Shown here: in pieces, positions 20,570 to 35,245 of the stretch | Layout: each line of letters begins with the position of its first letter | Numbering within the stretch: the first letter of the stretch is position 1 | Origin: a virus | Virus genome (UHGV): UHGV-0033085 | Direction: 5' to 3' (one strand) | DNA length: 64,000 nt | The notes under the pieces: generated by a model | Told to the model about the DNA's origin: nothing | What the model saw: the letters and a program-made list of their open reading frames with translations, nothing else | The model's database searches: none | Made by a program: the position numbers and the translations under genes

Positions 20570-20586
20570 TCAAGGATTTTTTGGAC

Positions 20587-23500
20587 ATGGAACAGTTCAA
20601 GAAGAAAAAATTACCGCTTCTTATTGCCGGTGCTGGTGGCAAGAAAAGTAAAAGCTCCAGCCGTACCCCGGTTGAAGCTGATGATACTGTCAATTCTCGT
20701 GCTATGGCAGCCATCCTCGACCTTCTTGGCGAGGGGGTTATCGGTGGCCTGGTAAATGGCGCAAAGTCGATCTTCATCGACGATTTACCGATCTTGAATG
20801 AAGATGGCTCTTCCAACTTCAGCGGTATTACATGGGATTTTCGTGACGGCTCACAAGACCAGACGCCAATGGCTGGTTTTGATTTTGTTGAAACGCCTAA
20901 GTCCGTAAATATTCAGCTTAAAAAAACACACGACGTTACGGTTTCAATCGATAACGATGAATCTGATCGCGTTCGTGTCATCATGAAATTCCCCTCTTTA
21001 CGTAGCGTTGATAAAAGCTCTGGCGATACAAATGGCACTACGGTGAAGTACAAATTCCAGATCGCCAACGGAGACGCAACATTTTCTGATGTGGTTGCAG
21101 AAGGTGAGAAAAGCGTTGATATCACGCTAACGGCAAAGAAAACAGGCGTGTATTACCGTAGCTATGAGCTGAAACTACCTAAGCCTGGTCGTGCATACAA
21201 GGTTAGGGTGATTCGCCTTACAGATGATAACAGTAGCCAGTACCTCTACAACGACACATGGGTTGATTCCATCGGTGAGATTGTCGACACGCCAATGAAC
21301 TACCCTAACTCTGCTCTTGTTGGCTTGAAGGTCAATTCAGAGCAGTTTGGTAGCACAATGCCTTCCCGTTCGTATTTGGTGCGCGGTATCAAAATCCGAG
21401 TACCGTCAAACTACAACGAATACACCAATACTTATGTCGGCGTATGGGACGGTACTTTTAAGCTGTTGTCTTCTTCAAACCCTGCGTGGATTCTCTACGA
21501 TTTGCTTACCAATACTCGGTATGGTCTTGGGCAATTTGTGTCGGAATCCATGATTGACCTCGGCCAGCTCTACCAGATTGGTCGATATTGTGACGAAGAG
21601 GTCGATGATGGCTTTGGGGGTAAAGAGAAACGCTTTGCAATCAATACGCAGATCACCAGTCGACAAGACGCATACCGATTAATTCAGGATATTGCCGGTG
21701 CATTCCGCGGCATGGTGTTTTGGGCTGGTGGCATGGTTAACATCATGCAGGATAGCCCATCAGATCCGGTAATGATGTTTACCAACTCCAACGTCAAAGA
21801 TGGACTGTTTACCTATAAAGGTTCTGCGCGTAAAGATCGCCCATCCGTTGCGCTCGTAACCTACAACAACAAGGAGGACGGTTATAAGCAAAATATCGAG
21901 TACGTTGAAGATCAGGACGCAATGCGCCGTTATGGTGAGCGTAAAACAGAAGTCGTAGCATTTGGATGTACAAGCCGAGGCCAGGCTCACCGAGTTGGTT
22001 TGTGGCTTTTGTATACCGCCAGAATGGAGTCGGATGTAATTACATTTACTGCCGGCTTAGACGCCTCATTTCTGATGCCCGGTGAAACCGTTCTGATTCA
22101 GAACAAATATCGTGCAGGTAAACGTAACTCCGGTCGAATTGTGGAGTTTACCAAAAACAGCATCACTCTCGATGCGCCTGTGTCGTTAGCTAAAAGCGGC
22201 AGCTTTATTCGGATATTGAATCAGGAAGGCAAAATCGTTGAACGCGATGTTCTTGAAACTGGCGAAAACATAACAAAGGTTACGTTTTCAAAAGCCCTGT
22301 CGTCAGCGGAAACGCCTGTTTTGAACGGTGTCTGGACAATTACAGAACCAGATCTCGAACCTATGCGCGTTCGCATCGTTAACATCGCGCAGGGGGAAAC
22401 GCCGGGTAGCTTTGACATCACCGCTGTTGAGAACAATCCGTCTAAATATGAGGCAATCGACAATGGTGCAACGCTGATCCCGCAGAATACGACGGTATTG
22501 GACCCAACTTACTCCAAGCCATCTAATCTGCAAATCACTGAAGGGACTTATCTCTCAAGCCCGGGCAACCTGTCAGTAAAACTGACTGCAACATGGGAAG
22601 GAAAATCTCCAGAGTATTGGATCAGTTGGCGACGTTCTGATGAAAACAATGTATCGAACTGGCAATCGGCGCGTGTAACCGAAGAGCAATACGAAATCGT
22701 TAATGTCGCGGAGAATGGACGCTACGACTTCCAGCTGTATGCGGTTTCATTCAACGGTAAAAAAACAGAGATTATCAGTACCGTTTATCAGGTGTTGGGC
22801 ACAATGACACCGCCGGATGCCCCAACGTCATTAACGGCCGTTGGAGACTATCGTAATGTGATACTGAATTGGGTTAATCCAGATTCGGTAGACCTTGATC
22901 ACATTAATGTTTACGCATCCCAGACCAACAATCTGGATACGGCGAAACTGATCGCAGAGTCTGCAAGCACCACCTTTACACATGCTGGTCTTGGGGATAG
23001 CGAAACGTGGTATTACTGGGTTCGAGCATCGAACAAGCGAGGTATGTTAAGCCCTCCGAACTCAAACTTGGGTACAGAGGCGACAACTCGCGATGTACTG
23101 TCGTTCCTGGCTGGCAAAATTACATCTTCCGAGCTTGGTCAGGCTCTGCTTGAGGACATCAACAGTAAAGCCTCTCAAGAAGCAGTTGACGAGTTAAATG
23201 AGCATATCAACCAGAGCGTCGAATCTTTGGAGGGGTCGGTAAACGACGTTAAGGAAGATATAGCTGAATTAGATAAGCAGTTCAGCGATAACCTCGCGAA
23301 TTTTGAAATAAAATTCAACGAGCGTAGCGATGCTTTGGAGAACGCACAAACCGAGCTTAAAGGTGAGGTTTCGGCAACGATCGACAAGGTCAATGAAGCG
23401 TTTGAAAAAATTGATGCTACTGATGCTGCAATTGTTGAAATCGAAAACACCGTATCTGAACACGATAAAGCTCTCGCTAATACAGTCGAGGCAATAAAGG

Positions 23501-25311
23501 CTGCAAGAGATGAAGCGGCGGCTCTTATTGCTAAGGAAAGCGAGGCTCGTGTAGAAGGTGATGCCGCAAACGCTAAACAACTGGAAGTGTTGCAGTCGAC
23601 GGTAGAGGAAAGTTCCGCAGCTGTTGAAGAAATGAAAAAGACGGTTGCAGAGGTCGATCGTGCCAGTGCAGAACTGACTACGAACATTGAGGCGTTAGCC
23701 AAAACAAATATTGACCTGGCTCTTCGTCAAGATGAAGACCAGCACAAGCAGATGGTCAATAACGCGAAGATCGCAACAACACAGAAAACCTTTGCTGATG
23801 ATATGTCTGCAATGGCCACGAAGGTTGAGGAAATTCGCGTAGAAATTGGCGAAGACATTAAGGCCAGTATTCTGGAAGAGTCCACCGCTCGTGCCGATGG
23901 CGATGAAGCGTTGGCAAAGCGTGTCACTCAGCTGCAATCTAAGTTTGAAGGAGATATCAGCGCGGCGATTAGTACAGAACAGGAGGCTCGTACATCTGCC
24001 GATGAAGCTTTGACGAAACAAATAACTCAGCTTGAGTCGAAAGTAAGCAACGATATTGTCGCAGCCATTAAGGAAGAGCAAGAAGCCCGAGCAACGGAAG
24101 ATTCGGCTCTGGCAAGCCAGATCACCCAACTTCAGGCAAAAGTTGATGATGATATTTCTGCTGCAATACGCAGTGAGCAGGAGGCGCGTGCGAGCGGAGA
24201 CTCTGCGTTAGCTAAACAAATAAACCAGCTTCAAGCAAAAGTTGACGGTGATATATCCGCCGCCATCACTCAGGAGCAGGAGGCCAGAGCAAGTGCTGAC
24301 GAGGCGCTCTCACGAGAAATTAACAGCCTGCGAGCACAGACCGGAACTGATATTGCCGCAGCGGTTGCTGTAGAGACAAAGGCAAGGACTGATGCCGATA
24401 GTGCATTGTCCACTCAGATTACGTCTCTTACAGCAAAAGCTAATGATCTCGAGGCATCTCTTGCCAGAGAAACAACGGCTCGTGCTGATGGTGATACCGC
24501 TTTAACAAAAGAGGTTTCAAGTTTAAAAGCACAGACTGCGAAAGATATTAGTGCGGCCGTTGCAGTTGAAACGCAGGCTCGAACTGATGCTGACTCGGCG
24601 TTATCATCTCAGATCACCAAACTGACCTCTCAATACAAAGAGGATATTAAAGCGGCTGTAGCAACCGAAACGAAAACGCGTACAGAGCAAGATGCGGCAC
24701 TGGCGACTCAAATCACAAACTTAGAGTCTCAAACAGCAGCCAACATTTCTGCGGCGGTCACAACTGAAACGACAGCGAGAACGCAGGCAGATAATGCTCT
24801 AAGTGGGCGAATCGACACTCTGAAAGCAGAGGTGGATGGAAATACCGCGACAATTCAACAGCAGGCAACAGCTATTGCTGATACCAACAAAAAAGTGTCA
24901 ACCGCGTGGACGTTGAAAATGGAGACTTCAACGAGCGGAGGGCAGAAGTATGTTGCTGGTATTGCGCTTGGTATCGACACCACTGGCCTTTCTCAGTTTT
25001 TGGTGCAGGCTGACAGGTTTGGTTTGGTCAACTCTGTTAACGGGAAGATCACCACGCCATTTGTTATCGAAAACAGTATCGCCTATATGAATGGTGCGTA
25101 TATCAAGGATGGCACAATCACCAATGCAAAAGTAGGCGATCTGCAATCTACCAATTTTGTTAGCGGTAGATCTGGATGGCGGTTCGGCAAAAATGGAACG
25201 CTTGAGATCAACGGTAATAGCGGGGGTAATGGGCGACTGGTCATAAATGGTCAGCGGATTGACGTTTATGACGATAACAACGTCCTACGAGTAAGAATTG
25301 GCCTTCTGTAA
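20587..25311 (+). CDS. central tail fibre / host specificity protein (lambda gpJ-like)
   Basis: about 1575 aa; conserved tip-attachment order; internal tandem repeats. Confidence 0.8.
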   Translation: MEQFKKKKLPLLIAGAGGKKSKSSSRTPVEADDTVNSRAMAAILDLLGEGVIGGLVNGAKSIFIDDLPILNEDGSSNFSGITWDFRDGSQDQTPMAGFDFVETPKSVNIQLKKTHDVTVSIDNDESDRVRVIMKFPSLRSVDKSSGDTNGTTVKYKFQIANGDATFSDVVAEGEKSVDITLTAKKTGVYYRSYELKLPKPGRAYKVRVIRLTDDNSSQYLYNDTWVDSIGEIVDTPMNYPNSALVGLKVNSEQFGSTMPSRSYLVRGIKIRVPSNYNEYTNTYVGVWDGTFKLLSSSNPAWILYDLLTNTRYGLGQFVSESMIDLGQLYQIGRYCDEEVDDGFGGKEKRFAINTQITSRQDAYRLIQDIAGAFRGMVFWAGGMVNIMQDSPSDPVMMFTNSNVKDGLFTYKGSARKDRPSVALVTYNNKEDGYKQNIEYVEDQDAMRRYGERKTEVVAFGCTSRGQAHRVGLWLLYTARMESDVITFTAGLDASFLMPGETVLIQNKYRAGKRNSGRIVEFTKNSITLDAPVSLAKSGSFIRILNQEGKIVERDVLETGENITKVTFSKALSSAETPVLNGVWTITEPDLEPMRVRIVNIAQGETPGSFDITAVENNPSKYEAIDNGATLIPQNTTVLDPTYSKPSNLQITEGTYLSSPGNLSVKLTATWEGKSPEYWISWRRSDENNVSNWQSARVTEEQYEIVNVAENGRYDFQLYAVSFNGKKTEIISTVYQVLGTMTPPDAPTSLTAVGDYRNVILNWVNPDSVDLDHINVYASQTNNLDTAKLIAESASTTFTHAGLGDSETWYYWVRASNKRGMLSPPNSNLGTEATTRDVLSFLAGKITSSELGQALLEDINSKASQEAVDELNEHINQSVESLEGSVNDVKEDIAELDKQFSDNLANFEIKFNERSDALENAQTELKGEVSATIDKVNEAFEKIDATDAAIVEIENTVSEHDKALANTVEAIKAARDEAAALIAKESEARVEGDAANAKQLEVLQSTVEESSAAVEEMKKTVAEVDRASAELTTNIEALAKTNIDLALRQDEDQHKQMVNNAKIATTQKTFADDMSAMATKVEEIRVEIGEDIKASILEESTARADGDEALAKRVTQLQSKFEGDISAAISTEQEARTSADEALTKQITQLESKVSNDIVAAIKEEQEARATEDSALASQITQLQAKVDDDISAAIRSEQEARASGDSALAKQINQLQAKVDGDISAAITQEQEARASADEALSREINSLRAQTGTDIAAAVAVETKARTDADSALSTQITSLTAKANDLEASLARETTARADGDTALTKEVSSLKAQTAKDISAAVAVETQARTDADSALSSQITKLTSQYKEDIKAAVATETKTRTEQDAALATQITNLESQTAANISAAVTTETTARTQADNALSGRIDTLKAEVDGNTATIQQQATAIADTNKKVSTAWTLKMETSTSGGQKYVAGIALGIDTTGLSQFLVQADRFGLVNSVNGKITTPFVIENSIAYMNGAYIKDGTITNAKVGDLQSTNFVSGRSGWRFGKNGTLEINGNSGGNGRLVINGQRIDVYDDNNVLRVRIGLL
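23860..24860 (+). repeat. degenerate tandem coding repeats (about 78 bp / 26 aa) inside J-like gene
   Basis: About 12 consecutive units of pattern D.AL..QIT.L..K...DI.AA...EQEAR. Confidence 0.6.
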
Positions 25312-28400: not shown

Positions 28401-29303
28401 GGGTTGACGTCTTCTGGTGAGATCGTTTCAAAATATGCAAATGGTTTCCGCATTGCTTACGGTAACTATGGGTTCTTTATCCGTAATGACGGCGGAAGCA
28501 CATATTTCATGCTAACAGCATCAGGAGACACATTAGGTTCATGGAACGGTTTGCGACCTATTACAATTAATAATACCAGCGGTGCTGTATCAATTGGTAA
28601 TGGACTAAATGTTACTGGTGGCGTAAATGGTAGTTTGAACGGTAATGCTTCAACAGCCACAAAATTGCAGACAGCAAGGAAAATTGCTGGTGTGGCGTTT
28701 GATGGCTCTGCCGATATTACTTTGACTGCGGCTAACCTTAATGCTTATACGAAAACAGAGGTAACAAACCTTCTAAGTTCCTATGCAAGCAGATCATCAC
28801 TGACAGGCTATAGTGGCAACCTGGATATTATTGCTGAAACACTGGTTGTCAAATCAGGCGGTAGTGGAGGGTTTGCTATATGGGATATTGGCACAACTAC
28901 TAGCGGTGCCAATATGTACATTGATCCAAACCCAGGTATCAATACAGTTTGGCGTTCAACATCTTCAAGGCGCTATAAAAAGGAAATTGAAACATTACAA
29001 GATCGATATGCTGATGAACTTTTGTCATTAAGACCTGTTTGGTATCGTTCAATTTGTCGAGGTGACCGAAAGGATTGGGGGTATTACGGCCTTATTGCTG
29101 AAGAGGTTGGTGAGATTGCCCCGCAATATGTCCATTGGCGTGAACCAACAAATAATGATTCTCCAGAAGATATTTCCTCAAATGGTATGGTCGCTGAAGG
29201 GGTGATGTATGAGCGTTTGGTTGTACCACTCATTCATCATATTCAGCAATTGACCAAAAGGGTTGAGGAGCTTGAAACGAAGTTAAATTCACCTAAAGAA
29301 TAA
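25404..29303 (+). CDS. long tail fibre protein with C-terminal intramolecular chaperone (S74-like) domain
   Basis: Ala/Ser-rich low-complexity shaft; three copies of NGNASTATKLQTAR-type motif; C-terminal YGLIAEEV...P auto-chaperone-like block. Confidence 0.75.
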   Translation: MWYREGTITFTQGSNTLVGAGTAWNVTANGVLPGMIVIGPDNKLYEIKRVTSDTNIVLSEPYTGETQSEVPCRIITTYEGDLTQFSARFTALMSRMSADSKSMRSWLTALDEVTIEREDGTEVTVKPLMQIVNEHNENVEWYKNNTDAINAAGDKAREAAASAAAAAESANTAGEKASQASQSASAAASSQSAASASATAAKKSETNAESAHLAAAESASVASTKASEAATSASSASASKDAAKASETNASSSANAAASFATEAENSSKAAKASETNAKASETAAGQSASSANSSKSAAEASASAASASADSASSSATAAGKSADSASSSATIATTKATEATSQATAAKNSASAAKTSETNAKVSEDNAASSKAAAAESASSASASATSASASKDEATKQASAAKGSASTASTKATEAAGSATAASQSKAAAESAATRAEAAADRAEEIAGAVAMEDASLTTKGVVKLSSAVDSTSESLAATPKAVKAVNDNANSRVPSNRKINGKALTADITLTPKDIGTLNSITMSFSGGAGWFKLATVTMPQASSIVYIALIGGAGYNVGSPHQAGISELVLRAGNGNPKGITGALWKRTAVGLTNFAWINTSGDTYDIYVEIGNYATSVNIHWDCTADASVSIYTSPTYSASKPSSVTDGVVYTMYSTHQKPTPSDIGALPTTGGTVSGPLSVTGGLTGSLNGNASTATKLQTARSIGGVVFDGSANINLPGVNTTGNQNTTGNAATATKLQTARKISGVPFDGSTDITLTAAHVAAFARRATGSYADADGGVPWNAESGAYNVTSSGESYILVNFYTGVGSCRTLQMKAHYRNRGLFYRSSRDGYGFESGWEQVYTTGFMPQPADINAPTAAAGWLNSGNGTAFTTAQFITWLNNQGAFTNKHWIARCSWTYANNNYIDDTGCGRIDLSGSVIEVFSNKATSHYTIRVTTTTTSGHGGVNNAEFIYVYNGSDYAPGWRRSYNTRNKPTASDVGALPLSGGTLSGGLTSSGEIVSKYANGFRIAYGNYGFFIRNDGGSTYFMLTASGDTLGSWNGLRPITINNTSGAVSIGNGLNVTGGVNGSLNGNASTATKLQTARKIAGVAFDGSADITLTAANLNAYTKTEVTNLLSSYASRSSLTGYSGNLDIIAETLVVKSGGSGGFAIWDIGTTTSGANMYIDPNPGINTVWRSTSSRRYKKEIETLQDRYADELLSLRPVWYRSICRGDRKDWGYYGLIAEEVGEIAPQYVHWREPTNNDSPEDISSNGMVAEGVMYERLVVPLIHHIQQLTKRVEELETKLNSPKE

Positions 29304-29363
29304 ACAACTTCAATCGGGGCTGGAACTAAACCAGCCCCTGCTTAAAAGTATAAGGATATATTT

Positions 29364-29618
29364 ATGAGCTATGGTGCACAGGTATGGTCGCCATCAAGAC
29401 AGGAGATGGTCGATGCGTTGGCCCCTGTTTATTACCTCGATTATTTTACTCCCTCTGGTTCTGGAAGTAGAACATATGAGGTTGAGGCGGGATTGGGAAT
29501 CGACTATTACATAATGGACGTAACCAATGGGAAATACACAAGTCTTACGGTTTCTGGAAATACCATTTCATGGTCTGGAGCTAGTGGCAATTTAAACATA
29601 TTGGTTTTTCAAAAATAA
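29364..29618 (+). CDS. hypothetical protein (tail fibre-associated cluster)
   Basis: 84-aa ORF with RBS, TAATG-coupled to next ORF. Confidence 0.35.
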   Translation: MSYGAQVWSPSRQEMVDALAPVYYLDYFTPSGSGSRTYEVEAGLGIDYYIMDVTNGKYTSLTVSGNTISWSGASGNLNILVFQK

Positions 29619-29920
29619 TGTACGGAAGCAAGATATATCGATCTGACGGGAAGGTCTGGATGTCTCCTTCTTTGTCTCCTATCGTTTTTCAGAGAAAGCA
29701 GGTTGTTTCTTTGTCTGGCGGGACAGAGTTTAACACCCAAATATCTCCAGATCGTTCACCGATGATTTTTGTTGCCTATTCGAAAGCTGTTTCATTAATA
29801 GCCAACAGAATAGTGCGTAACAACCAGGTGATTTACAGTTTCGGAGGTCAGGGTAGCGACTCTAGTGCCACGATATACGTATTTTCGAAAGGTATAGCCA
29901 AAAAGAAACTTGGGGCATGA
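29618..29920 (+). CDS. hypothetical protein (tail fibre-associated cluster)
   Basis: 100-aa ORF, translationally coupled. Confidence 0.35.
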   Translation: MYGSKIYRSDGKVWMSPSLSPIVFQRKQVVSLSGGTEFNTQISPDRSPMIFVAYSKAVSLIANRIVRNNQVIYSFGGQGSDSSATIYVFSKGIAKKKLGA

Positions 29921-30225
29921 GTTTTTTCAATGCGCGAGGAGAGGAGATCTATAATACGGCAAATATCCCACTTTCATTTACCTTTCTTAATAATACGGAG
30001 TGGAACAGTTCTGGAGGGCATGTTTTTGATTACCCGCCAGCGATAATCCCAACATATGCAAATGTGTTCGCGGTTCCAGTACCGGGCGGGGCCATGACAA
30101 TGGTTTATGGATATGCGGCATATGGAAATACTGTTAGTTCCATATTCGTAAACCAACTTAATGGCGGCCATAGTTTTAGCGTAAATGGCAGAGTACCGGT
30201 AATAAATAGAAATCTGTATAACTGA
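29917..30225 (+). CDS. hypothetical protein (tail fibre-associated cluster)
   Basis: 102-aa ORF, ATGA-coupled. Confidence 0.35.
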   Translation: MSFFNARGEEIYNTANIPLSFTFLNNTEWNSSGGHVFDYPPAIIPTYANVFAVPVPGGAMTMVYGYAAYGNTVSSIFVNQLNGGHSFSVNGRVPVINRNLYN

Positions 30226-30235
30226 TGAGTAAACG

Positions 30236-30466
30236 ATGAAAAGATTATTTCTAACAATAGCTGTTGTTCTCTCTCTTACTGGCTGTCAGAAATTGCCGAC
30301 ACCCATATGTTATGGTGAGGCTATCATTGGTGGACAGGAGACAGTCATACCTATATATGCTGTTAAAAAGGTTAACGGCTATACCTTATACAAAGCGGGT
30401 AGCATCTATAACTGGCGATGGGTTGGAGTAGGTGCTTTCTCATCAGTGCGTTGCAATGCTGAATGA
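30236..30466 (+). CDS. small lipoprotein
   Basis: Signal peptide MKRLFLTIAVVLSLTGC with lipobox LTGC. Confidence 0.5.
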   Translation: MKRLFLTIAVVLSLTGCQKLPTPICYGEAIIGGQETVIPIYAVKKVNGYTLYKAGSIYNWRWVGVGAFSSVRCNAE

Positions 30467-30547
30467 TAAGTAAGTACACACCTACAACAAAAGGGTGAAA
30501 TGTGATATAAATCCGCCATCCCGATTTGACTTTTCATGGAGGAAAAC

Positions 30548-30871
30548 ATGTCGAACGAGATGGCGGGCGTTACAACAGAGCAAGTTGAGCGTATTGCCGC
30601 GATCGTTGCTCGGGAGGTTGTTGGCAAATTAGGTAAAGAGCTACGTGAAGAAATTGGCCAGGAGGTCAACGACCAGCTCAAAACCTACTTTGGCGATATG
30701 ACGCCTTCGCAACACAGCATTCAGCACTCCAACCTGGACAAACTACTTAATCGGCTAGACGCCATCTCCAGCGGGTTCTTTGGCGGCATTATCTCAAAGA
30801 TAACGTCGTTCCTGATTACCGCGCTGCTGCTGGGTCTGGCCGCTTATGGCGTGAAGAATGGACTGCAATAA
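30548..30871 (+). CDS. holin-like membrane protein (putative)
   Basis: ATG 30548 after GGAGGA; single C-terminal TM segment; first gene of lysis cassette. Confidence 0.4.
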   Translation: MSNEMAGVTTEQVERIAAIVAREVVGKLGKELREEIGQEVNDQLKTYFGDMTPSQHSIQHSNLDKLLNRLDAISSGFFGGIISKITSFLITALLLGLAAYGVKNGLQ

Positions 30872-30884
30872 CAGGAGATCAAGG

Positions 30885-31577
30885 ATGAAAACTCCGAGAG
30901 GCATTCGTAATAACAACCCTGGCAACCTCGACAAAGGTTCGCCGTGGCAGGGGCTAATCGACAACCCTGCCGAACCGCGCTTTTGCACGTTTAAAGACCC
31001 TGTTTGGGGGATTCGTGCGCTGGCGGTGACTCTAATTACCTACCACGATAAACGTCGCGCAAAAGACGGCACAAGTATCGATACCATTCGTGAAGTTATT
31101 GAACGCTGGGCACCGCCGAATGAAAACAATACTGACGCCTACATTAATGAGGTGTCTAAAGCCGTTGGTGTAACCGCAGACATGATCATCGATCTGCATG
31201 ATTACGACATCCTTCGACCTTTGGTTGAGGCAATCATTCGCCACGAGAATGGCCGAGGCCCGCTAAAAACGCTGAACACCTGGTATGCGGCAGAAGTTAT
31301 TGAGGAAGGTCTGCGTCGAGCTGGCGTTGTTAAGCCGGTGAAAACCGTGAAGGCTGTTCCTGTAACTAAAGAAACCGCAGGCGCAACTGTTACAGCAGGT
31401 ATTGGTCTGGCGCAGCTGGCCGATGTTATGCCGCAGGTTTCCGCTGCTATGGATAAAGCACAAGGTCATATCTCTAGCGGGGATACAGTACGCATCATCT
31501 TCGGTATTGCCACTATTGTTGTGGCAGGATTCATTGCCTGGTCGCAGGTAAGAAAACACCAGAAAGGGATGGTCTAA
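30885..31577 (+). CDS. endolysin candidate (positional) with C-terminal hydrophobic segment
   Basis: Lies between holin-like gene and spanin pair; no catalytic motif recognised. Confidence 0.35.
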   Translation: MKTPRGIRNNNPGNLDKGSPWQGLIDNPAEPRFCTFKDPVWGIRALAVTLITYHDKRRAKDGTSIDTIREVIERWAPPNENNTDAYINEVSKAVGVTADMIIDLHDYDILRPLVEAIIRHENGRGPLKTLNTWYAAEVIEEGLRRAGVVKPVKTVKAVPVTKETAGATVTAGIGLAQLADVMPQVSAAMDKAQGHISSGDTVRIIFGIATIVVAGFIAWSQVRKHQKGMV

Positions 31578-31578
31578 T

Positions 31579-31830
31579 ATGCTAGGCAGCCTGATGACAA
31601 AGCTAAAAGTTGCTTTGATTACGCTGGCTGCCGTTCTTTTCGTTCTTGTCGGCGCTTACACGATGGGCGGGAATGCGGCGCGACGAGCAATGGAAGAGAA
31701 GGCAAAACAGGAAGACAGAAAACGACTTCAAAGCACAGTGGAAGTGGTGAATGAGACGAGCAATAAAATACGTCAGAAAGATGCTTCTGCCGTTCATCGT
31801 GAGTTGTATGATAAGTGGGTGCGTCATTAA
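31579..31830 (+). CDS. i-spanin (Rz-like)
   Basis: N-terminal TM segment then charged helical region; o-spanin ORF embedded in its 3' end. Confidence 0.5.
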   Translation: MLGSLMTKLKVALITLAAVLFVLVGAYTMGGNAARRAMEEKAKQEDRKRLQSTVEVVNETSNKIRQKDASAVHRELYDKWVRH

Positions 31831-31966
31831 ACCACAAACAGCCAGCGTGTTGTTCTGCGATGGGGCTGAGCCTATCTATATCAGCAATAATGATGTAATG
31901 ACTGAAGAAACCGAACGCCAAATCCTTTTTCACAATACGATGGGAGAGAGGGTTTGTGGTTGGTGA
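31751..31966 (+). CDS. o-spanin (Rz1-like lipoprotein)
   Basis: Starts inside i-spanin in a different frame; lipobox-like ISGC after hydrophobic signal. Confidence 0.5.
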   Translation: MRRAIKYVRKMLLPFIVSCMISGCVIKPQTASVLFCDGAEPIYISNNDVMTEETERQILFHNTMGERVCGW

Positions 31967-31998: not shown

Positions 31999-32520
31999 TT
32001 ATTCTTCGAACAATTTTTCGATAGATTTTGTAGGATAGAACAAAGAACGCTCGTTGTTACCAACCAGCTGGATAAAGTCTAAACTTTTATAAAACGCCTT
32101 GGCTTTGTCATTTAACGCCTCAACGAAAAGTCCATGAATGCCTACAGCAAGAGATGCATTGTACACAACGCGCATTGCATGTGTTACAAGCATTGAGCCA
32201 AATCCTTGACCTTGAAGGGACTTGTCCAAAGCCAGCCTACCCAAAGTAACACTTGGAACATTCCGATAAGGTACCTTCTTTTGCTGGCTTCTTGAAGGTA
32301 AGGACTCCTTTTCAAAGCAGCTACCTGACAAAGTGTAATACCCTAACACTTTTGGTCTGCCTTCTTTCGTGCAGAGCACATAAGCGCGAAGAATTTTTCC
32401 CTCATGCTGCCTTTTTAAGTGGTTGGTTAAAAAGGCATTTAGTGATTCTTCACCGCAATCAAAACCATTCAAATCATAATCTTTCTCTCCAGAGAAAATT
32501 TCTATCTTTATATTATCCAC
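31999..32520 (-). CDS. GNAT-family acetyltransferase toxin (TacT/AtaT-like)
   Basis: GNAT motif LQGQGFGSMLV; GTG start 8 nt after antitoxin stop. Confidence 0.7.
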   Translation of the reverse strand: MDNIKIEIFSGEKDYDLNGFDCGEESLNAFLTNHLKRQHEGKILRAYVLCTKEGRPKVLGYYTLSGSCFEKESLPSRSQQKKVPYRNVPSVTLGRLALDKSLQGQGFGSMLVTHAMRVVYNASLAVGIHGLFVEALNDKAKAFYKSLDFIQLVGNNERSLFYPTKSIEKLFEE

Positions 32521-32527
32521 GAGTAAA

Positions 32528-32797
32528 CTACTCCATGCTTTTCAGACGATCAGCAGCTCGTTTCAGCTTGTCGTTCGGTGCCGGAGGATTGCTTATAGCG
32601 TCCATAACCAGATTCCAGGATTCTTCATTCAGAACTAGTCTACGGTGTTGCTCTATAACTTTCACGGCACGTTCAGATGCACTGCTAACCATAAACTGAG
32701 TAATGCTCTGGTTAGACATTGCGGCAGCTTCCTCGATGATGCTTTTATCGTCATCGGTTAATCTCAAATCGATGCGCTGCTTTTTTAGTGCTGACAT
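32528..32797 (-). CDS. DUF1778/RHH-type antitoxin (TacA/AtaR-like)
   Basis: Start MSALKKQRIDLRLTDDDK with AGGAGG 6 nt upstream; listed ORF has 13-aa spurious N-extension. Confidence 0.65.
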   Translation of the reverse strand: MSALKKQRIDLRLTDDDKSIIEEAAAMSNQSITQFMVSSASERAVKVIEQHRRLVLNEESWNLVMDAISNPPAPNDKLKRAADRLKSME

Positions 32798-33115
32798 GTA
32801 TTCCTCCTGATGGCCGTGATGTAGGAAGGCCATCAATCTCCTCTGTTCAAACTGAGTTTTCGACTCAAAAATTACTTTAAAAGGCTATAGCCCATTACGT
32901 GTGCATTATCAAATTGTGTACGGCATATCACCGTACTTGTAATATAGAGGTCATTGTTACTTTTTTCAACAGACAAATACAAGCTATGTTTGCCAATTGT
33001 TAATCACAACCTACCATTTAACCTTTACACCGCAGCCGTAGGCATTTAGGCTATATCACATATAAGAAAACAAATTGTTTCAGACGATAATTATATACGC
33101 AAAGGGAACTCTCCA

Positions 33116-35129: not shown

Positions 35130-35245
35130 TCTTTTAAAAGACACCACCAGAACAACTCCCTTCCGTTTCCACTTCCAAAAACTGCCACCAGTCGCTATCA
35201 TCCGCTCATTGTGATAAGTAAGTAACTACCTACTAGGTGAGCCAC

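Follow-up and report, generated by a model that had tools for sequence, protein, structure and literature searches.

A cor cassette of the SSU5 phage-plasmid lineage, probably comprising a tail-tip receptor-binding module and a receptor-blocking lipoprotein, with a frameshifted second gene

Introduction

What is the role of the four small open reading frames (ORFs) that lie between the tail fibre gene and the lysis genes of UHGV-0033085, a virus genome from which a stretch of 64,000 nucleotides (the window) was analysed? An earlier note, made from the letters of the DNA, had proposed that the last of them, ORF4, encodes an exclusion lipoprotein of the T5 Llp type and that ORF1 to ORF3 may encode fibre assembly factors. 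The coordinates, sizes and translational couplings that it gave for the ORFs are present exactly as described, and their position between fibre and lysis cassette is borne out (Table 1). The count of four is another matter: the ORFs exist, but they represent three genes, ORF2 and ORF3 being one gene split by a 1-bp deletion. Gene structure, the frameshift, family memberships and fold similarity were computed here. Taken together, the results suggest, with a probability that we put at about 65%, that the region is the SSU5-lineage form of the cor cassette, which would combine a tail-tip receptor-binding module with a matching lipoprotein that blocks the receptor.

Three-gene 'cor cassettes' have been described before; they have been recognised since the genome papers of N15, T1 and Rtp, and published reviews treat the cassette and its link to FhuA. 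The Cor proteins of N15, phi80, HK022, mEp167 and T1 inactivate FhuA and exclude FhuA-dependent phages (T1, phi80, N15), a logic which is the same as that of T5 Llp. The T1-type Cor has been modelled by the KanT1 authors on the periplasmic face of FhuA, with an Llp-like predicted fold.

Results and Discussion

The ORFs belong to the families of the cor cassette

The window is recognisable from its relatives as an SSU5-like phage-plasmid of Escherichia coli, since the stretch that holds the ORFs is 95-99% identical in 79 PLSDB plasmids, nearly all of them non-mobilizable Escherichia plasmids of ~100-115 kb, and shows 68% identity to Salmonella phage SSU5. This conservation, together with PHROG profile matches of the four ORFs at E 1e-18 to 8e-30, indicates that they are not chance ORFs. 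The ORFs are closely spaced, with junctions of TAATG between ORF1 and ORF2 and ATGA between ORF2 and ORF3 and a gap of 10 nt ahead of ORF4. None of them had been credited with a recognisable motif in the earlier note. All four in fact match named phage families, and ORF4 passes the NCBI model for Cor. ORF1 (gene 1, phrog_557) and the 202-amino-acid (aa) gene made up of ORF2 and ORF3 (gene 2, phrog_425) are homologues of N15 gp22/gp23, HK022 p24/p25 and T1 gp32/gp31, and ORF4 is gene 3, cor.

The same gene order is found in N15 (22-23-24), HK022 (p24-p25-cor), mEp235 (gp22-24) and T1 (32-31-30), the cassettes of which share with the window PHROG families 557, 425 and 1119 and the Pfam family of the J C-terminus. 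As in the window, the cor cassettes of FhuA phages encode proteins of ~85-100 aa and ~200-230 aa and a lipoprotein of ~75 aa, and adjoin J/tail-fibre genes. The window differs from the N15-type cassettes in that its genes follow the side fibre instead of J and in that gene 2 is frameshifted; moreover, cor begins 10 nt after gene 2, whereas a spacer of ~110 nt is present in N15 and mEp235 and cor is convergent in T1. In SSU5, genes 023-024-025 are the orthologues (identity 69%, 75% and 59%). SSU5 resembles the window in belonging to the phage-plasmid lineage, in gene order, in the fibre upstream and in the holin/endolysin/Rz genes downstream. Unlike the window, it has an extra gp38-like adhesin gene between fibre and cassette, and its gene 024 is intact; the RefSeq start of this gene is late, and the full 202-aa ORF is open.

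ORF4 is a member of the Cor lipoprotein family

By homology ORF4 is clearly a member of the Cor family of superinfection-exclusion lipoproteins. It scored 79.5 bits, against a cut-off of 31, with NF047972 'phage exclusion lipoprotein Cor', an NCBIfam equivalog (E 1.3e-22), residues 1-74 being aligned to positions 1-77 of the 78 in the profile, and it matched phrog_1119 at E 7.8e-30. Pfam gave a sub-threshold lipoprotein signal only. Full-length identity is 59% to SSU5_025, which is already annotated as 'Cor-like', 58% to the Cor of Stx2-converting phage 86 (Stx, Shiga toxin), 47% to that of mEp235, which is of the HK022 type, 42% to N15 gp24 and 28% to T1 Cor; the N15, mEp235 and T1 proteins (28-47%) have the same lipobox and the same Cys pair. 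The setting is also that of the family, as cor stands beside J/tail-fibre genes with a gp22-like and a gp23-like gene ahead of it.

The hydrophobic N-terminus of ORF4 was confirmed, and the lipobox LTGC, noted earlier, lies at L14-T-G-C17 (MKRLFLTIAVVLSLTG in front of C17-Q). When 8 Cor proteins were aligned, those of N15 and T1 among them, residues L14, C17, C25, C73, G33, A54-G55, V63 and F68 proved invariant. The Gln at +2, in a position without Asp, predicts sorting to the outer membrane by the established Lol rule.

The idea of an exclusion lipoprotein of the Llp type was therefore right in kind, the protein being of the Cor family by homology, but it does not extend to the sequence of Llp. 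When Cor was searched with phmmer against all PDB chains (including 8A60, E up to 10), no sequence similarity to T5 Llp was found, nor was any to Rtp45 detectable. The only PDB matches of Cor were designed 'Pizza' propellers, which were set aside as spurious, having no passing stretch. T5 pb5/Llp represents the same strategy: a dedicated receptor-binding protein (RBP) sits at the tip of the central fibre, and the receptor that it uses is inactivated, from the periplasmic side, by a small lipoprotein of the outer membrane. The T5 genes, unlike those of the window, lie at a different genomic position, and pb5 is a much larger, unrelated protein.

The gene table of pTLYA-2 has no gene at the cor position (L017 18525-18846), which the annotation may miss. 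The annotation of SP15_P2 calls cor no more than hypothetical and gives the large gene a late start (567 nt vs 609). In Stx2-converting phage 86 (L009 3428-4213), the closest Cor outside SSU5 is encoded after a long-tail-fibre gene and an unrelated 181-aa ORF. A gp22/gp23-like pair is also present in this phage, after the tail-tip fibre gene, whose product ends in the C-terminal motif IEVYDENGRLAVRIGRL, as does the J protein of the window.

Genes 1 and 2 probably encode a receptor-binding module

With the 202-aa protein as query, tblastn retrieved 279 phage records, and in 261 of these the match extended over at least 80% of its length. A word-indexed homologue search returned only 5 close relatives and an exhaustive profile search 22 matches, among which P0021 (1611 aa, 11 stretches) was discarded as a low-complexity repeat protein. 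Pfam gave nothing for ORF1-3, and a sequence search of all PDB chains gave nothing meaningful for any of the three proteins of the cassette.

The modelled 202-aa protein has the fold of an experimentally validated RBP of a small siphovirus, that of Oekolampad (Bas18), whose gene occupies the corresponding locus 3' of gpJ and for which receptor binding has been shown by cryo-electron microscopy (cryo-EM). The Oekolampad RBP and Rtp45 (PDB 9RPT, 9RPS) represent, among small siphoviruses, the LptD-specific receptor-binding protein and exclusion lipoprotein. The Oekolampad RBP differs from the window protein in its size (309 aa), in being only 13-14% identical and in binding LptDE. ORF1 is paralogous to the N-terminal domain of the 202-aa protein (hhalign probability 89.5%, E 2e-7); its predicted model is a beta-sandwich (predicted local distance difference test, pLDDT, 84.9) with weak generic matches only. 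For an internal duplication within the 202-aa protein there was no support (hhalign probability 1.9%) apart from a short motif at the N-terminus. The 202-aa protein is probably the receptor-binding protein, and the 84-aa protein is probably its adaptor or partner. Considered alone, the 84-aa protein may have a chaperone or adaptor role.

A second possibility is that genes 1 and 2 encode non-virion helpers of Cor which act in superinfection exclusion at the envelope. Such a role has been proposed for T1-like phages by the KanT1 authors, and it agrees with the PHROG labels of both genes as membrane proteins. In the window the two genes are tightly linked to and co-oriented with cor, ORF3 ending 10 nt before it, and in Bas04 and tonijn the lipoprotein, the small and the large protein are encoded in one co-oriented block convergent to J. 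We nevertheless consider such helpers improbable. No signal peptide, lipobox or transmembrane/hydrophobic segment was found in the products of genes 1 and 2, which leaves them no route to the envelope, and the label 'membrane associated protein' of PHROG 425 is not supported by the sequence. The pair is common in the absence of any lipoprotein, being present without cor in JenP1, Stx phages and Cyrano. In T1, Bas05 and Bas17, the pair is co-oriented with J, and cor is convergent and hence separately transcribed; this arrangement would suit late structural genes and an exclusion gene expressed apart from them. The match of the 202-aa fold to a proven receptor-binding protein likewise argues against helpers.

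The role offered earlier for ORF1 to ORF3, that of assembly factors or chaperones of the adjacent side tail fibre which would be absent from the finished particle, concerns two genes only. Small genes 3' of fibre genes are often chaperones, genes 1 and 2 stand immediately downstream of the fibre gene, and the fold of the 84-aa protein is uninformative on this point. In spite of this, a chaperone function appears very improbable. The side fibre carries at its own C-terminus a Peptidase_S74 domain, which is an intramolecular chaperone domain, and therefore needs no separate assembly factors. The pair adjoins the J gene and not the side-fibre genes in N15, T1, mEp235, Bas04, Bas05 and Bas17; JenP1 has it with J on one side and the lateral tail genes on the other, and in Cyrano it is far from any tail gene. 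The 202-aa protein also has an RBP fold. An apparent co-variation of the cassette with the fibre tip, a check suggested in the earlier note, was seen: over the C-terminal 233 aa of the side fibre, identity is 95% in pTLYA-2 and SP15_P2, both of which carry the cassette, and the cassette-less Cyrano has a different end. Although the presence of the cassette thus goes with the same fibre C-terminus in the E. coli elements, physical linkage can explain it.

As presumed partner of the module, the J-like protein of the window has the matching C-terminal tip domain (PF09327). Over its last ~300 aa it shares 29-37% identity with the far C-terminal ends of J in T1, N15, mEp235, Bas04, Bas05, Bas17, tonijn and JenP1, and all eight of these phages encode a gp22/gp23-like pair. 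This type of J C-terminus was common to every phage with a pair. The C-terminal domain of J is presumed to be the docking platform of the module. The receptor specificity of small siphoviruses has been assigned to this locus in the BASEL work and in a 2026 preprint. Overall, the context favours a tail-tip receptor-binding module over fibre chaperones or envelope helpers of Cor.

Gene 2 is split by a single missing base

By alignment, ORF2 and ORF3 are two halves of a single 202-aa gene. On the phrog_425 profile of 224 positions, ORF2 covers 3-102 and ORF3 covers 107-223 (E 1e-22 and 3e-18), and a single 202-aa ORF occupies this place in the closest plasmids, pTLYA-2 and SP15_P2, and in SSU5. 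The gene is split because one A is missing in a run of this base (Table 1); in SSU5 seven A stand there, in an equivalent context that is likewise in frame.

The 5-A allele was met in the window only. A 45-nt probe with five A matched nothing in PLSDB or among 5,426 complete E. coli genomes. With the 6-A probe 67 matches were obtained in complete E. coli genomes/plasmids, every one of them 100% identical, and the 6-base run was present in 18/18 IMG/VR contigs that matched a variable-gap pattern. Six A were likewise found in all PLSDB plasmids checked. Phase variation at the A-run was rejected, as no second allele was found in ~160 related sequences. Programmed frameshifting as the native design was also rejected, as all relatives have a single ORF.

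In the predicted model the deletion falls in the linker between the two beta domains (residues 92-101). Residues E97-G100 are lost, including G100, which is one of only 7 invariant residues in a 16-member family alignment, and this copy has no intact ORF for the PHROG 425 protein. The deletion creates GCC_AAA_AAG (C_AAA_AAG), and a -1 ribosomal slip at AAG may restore exactly the wild-type peptide AKKETWGM. The split copy would make two half-proteins without the invariant Gly; slippage by -1 at the new C_AAA_AAG could add a little full-length protein. Provided that the deletion is real and no sequencing error, adsorption is probably impaired in this copy.

Such an error, a homopolymer mistake of the assembly in an element that really carries the intact 202-aa gene, is a serious alternative to which we give somewhat less than an even chance. 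The stretch with the ORFs is present in 67 complete genomes, 79 plasmids and 18 viral contigs, none of which has the 5-A allele; the missing A sits in a homopolymer, and the flanking DNA is otherwise 99.4% identical to pTLYA-2. On the other hand, over the ~45 kb aligned to pTLYA-2 no other isolated 1-bp indel falls within the ORFs checked, which indicates that the assembly is not generally error-prone and not riddled with homopolymer errors. Inactivating mutations in tail genes do build up in plasmid prophages. The other isolated single-base homopolymer differences from pTLYA-2 are those at 2949, which is between ORFs, and at 35146 only (CCC vs CC; CC vs CCC).

Receptor of the module

FhuA is the first guess for the receptor, by analogy with other phages that have this type of Cor, and it is the only receptor at which Cor action has been shown. 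The alleles of genes 1 and 2 have a different affinity. Outside SSU5 their closest relatives are in Bas04 (FritzSarasin), the receptor of which is BtuB, and in tonijn, with full-length identities of 36-38% for gene 1 and 29-32% for gene 2 and E values to 1e-21. The next closest are those of JenP1, Cyrano and the Stx phages, the Bas04/tonijn and JenP1/Stx clades together spanning 24-38%. Identity to the FhuA clade (T1, N15, Bas05, Bas17) is 21-28%, at E 1e-4 to 0.2. In the preprint, a FhuA-specific RBP allele is defined by >30% identity at >99% coverage; against N15, mEp235, T1, Bas05 and Bas17 the window showed 21-26% identity in partial alignments (E 6e-5 to 0.23) and falls outside that definition. 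The receptor assignment is uncertain because the RBP pair and Cor have different clade affinities.

In Bas04 and tonijn the pair has the same protein sizes as genes 1 and 2 of the window. Apart from the signal peptide, the lipoprotein of these two phages (89-91 aa) bears no relation to Cor; its gene precedes the small and large genes, the whole block being convergent to J (Bas04, L016 10882-12046; tonijn, L004 4452-5615). These BtuB-type loci differ in order and orientation from the FhuA-type loci of T1, Bas05 and Bas17.

The SSU5-lineage cassette could be a hybrid, in which an RBP pair of the BtuB/Stx/9g-like clade has been joined to a Cor otherwise tied to FhuA. We regard this as tentative and rather doubtful. 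If it were true and there is one receptor, Cor-type lipoproteins may block a transporter other than FhuA, or the RBP clade may have switched to FhuA. It would also mean that the FhuA/BtuB-type and LptD-type RBP families of small siphoviruses, supposedly unrelated, share one fold and one origin, and that SSU5-like phage-plasmids use a further protein receptor besides the lipopolysaccharide (LPS) core.

The module occupies different loci among SSU5-like elements

The J protein of Cyrano is 97.7% identical to that of the window, and the cassette is absent from this locus in Cyrano. A divergent gp22/gp23-like pair (CYRAN_88/89, L006 4717-5615) is carried instead between CYRAN_87 and CYRAN_90, far from the tail genes. 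In pTLYA-2 the cassette is present, and this divergent pair is absent from the 93.6 kb examined. As far as examined, each of the two genomes has one pair, and their comparison points to alternative loci of the module among SSU5-like elements with near-identical J. The neighbours of the Cyrano pair are a 189-aa gene and a DUF4942 gene; in pTLYA-2 (L018 22498-24891) these neighbours are adjacent, with no pair between them.

Proposed mechanism and its implications

From the above we infer a virion location of genes 1 and 2, docking on J, and an action of Cor on the receptor in this host. Genes 1 and 2 would encode soluble all-beta virion proteins, of which the two-domain 202-aa protein would act as receptor-binding protein and the 84-aa protein as its partner or adaptor on the trimeric J tip. 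Cor would inactivate the same receptor, most simply FhuA, from the periplasmic side, and infected or lysogenic cells and debris would no longer adsorb this phage or others that use that receptor.

Several points weigh against this proposal. The evidence that places genes 1 and 2 in the virion is indirect, the T1 cryo-EM structure does not resolve the distal tip, and the structural model describes an intact homologue instead of the two halves. Here it is the side fibre, and not J itself, that directly precedes the cassette. No promoter-like site upstream of cor was found in a scan of 29100-30700, cor lies 10 nt after gene 2, and its expression in the prophage state is therefore uncertain. The RBP pair is nearer to the BtuB (Bas04/tonijn) and JenP1/Stx clades, while the lipoprotein is of the FhuA-associated Cor type. 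For SSU5, a Salmonella phage, the only receptor reported is the LPS outer core, which is reached via the fibre adhesin gp22.

The kind of cassette is already known and has also been used to predict phage receptors, and the SSU5-lineage copy is an ordinary one. Two points are modestly new: PHROG 425 is tied strongly by structure to a validated RBP, and the RBP pair and Cor differ in their clade affinities. With the proposed reading, the locus becomes a module of host recognition and self-exclusion rather than four mystery ORFs, and the name receptor-binding protein for PHROG 425 gains structural support from the fold shared with the Oekolampad RBP. SSU5-like phage-plasmids occur commonly in E. 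coli and Salmonella, and resistance genes can be among their cargo. For them the proposal predicts that, beyond the LPS-core step, a protein receptor is used, either FhuA or another TonB-dependent transporter, and that lysogeny confers resistance against phages that share the receptor. In view of its private frameshift, the element in the window may itself be defective in adsorption.

Layout of the locus and neighbouring genes

Table 1. Features of the cassette and its surroundings, in window coordinates.
Feature	Position	Strand	Remarks
ORF1	29364-29618	+	84 aa
ORF2	29618-29920	+	100 aa
ORF3	29917-30225	+	102 aa
ORF4	30236-30466	+	76 aa
Gene 1, gp22-like small protein, 84 aa	29364..29618	+	PHROG 557 ('outer membrane protein', misleading name)
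Gene 2, gp23-like protein, 202 aa, frameshifted here into ORF2 + ORF3	29618..30225	+	PHROG 425 ('membrane associated protein')
Gene 3, cor, 76-aa predicted outer-membrane lipoprotein	30236..30466	+	phrog_1119, NCBIfam NF047972
Frameshift site	29900..29904	+	A5 run, CCAAAAAG, vs A6 in relatives (DNA alignment)
J-like central fibre gene	20581-25311	+	upstream of side fibre
'Phage_Tail_Tip' domain, J C-terminus	24850..25254	+	Pfam PF09327, E 1e-41, residues 1424-1558
Side tail fibre, 1299 aa	25404..29303	+	directly upstream of gene 1; Pfam Gp34_trimer 1e-29
Peptidase_S74 domain, side fibre C-terminus	28962-29132	+	24.8 bits vs cut-off 22
GC-rich hairpin	29316..29338	+	8-bp stem + 7-nt loop, between fibre gene and gene 1
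Lysis genes: holin-like gene, endolysin, Rz/Rz1	30536-31966		downstream of cor
Endolysin	30858-31577		phrog_873, E 2e-87
GNAT-toxin/antitoxin pair	31999-32836	-	right after lysis genes

The hairpin between the fibre gene and gene 1 folds as RNA at -19.1 kcal/mol (z -3.7), and 0/200 shuffles fold as well. It has no U-tract downstream and was not called by the terminator scan. The combined promoter and terminator scan of 29100-30700 gave a site count no higher than that of shuffled sequence, and no structured element was found 3' of cor.

Among the lysis genes, the 111-aa gene ahead of the endolysin belongs to phrog_5093 ('unknown function'), and its holin role is only presumed. The endolysin has a hydrophobic segment at its C-terminus (IIFGIATIVVAGFIAWSQV). 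This is unusual, as signal-arrest-release (SAR) endolysins have their signal-anchor N-terminally. In the pair that follows the lysis genes, the 173-aa ORF matches Acetyltransf_1/7, of the GCN5-related N-acetyltransferase (GNAT) type, and the 102-aa ORF matches the antitoxin TacA (E 8e-26); in Cyrano the equivalent arrangement is annotated as a KacT-type toxin and its antitoxin.

A tandem-repeat scan of the DNA of the J and fibre genes gave nothing. At the peptide level, residues ~870-1400 of J hold a very long run of diverged coiled-coil-like repeats (DISAAI..EQEARA.AD.AL..QI..L.AKV), which occupy the distal half of the protein and were undetected by DNA tandem-repeat finding. BLAST aligned the C-terminal part of J with segments that lie earlier in the protein, at 31-43% identity.

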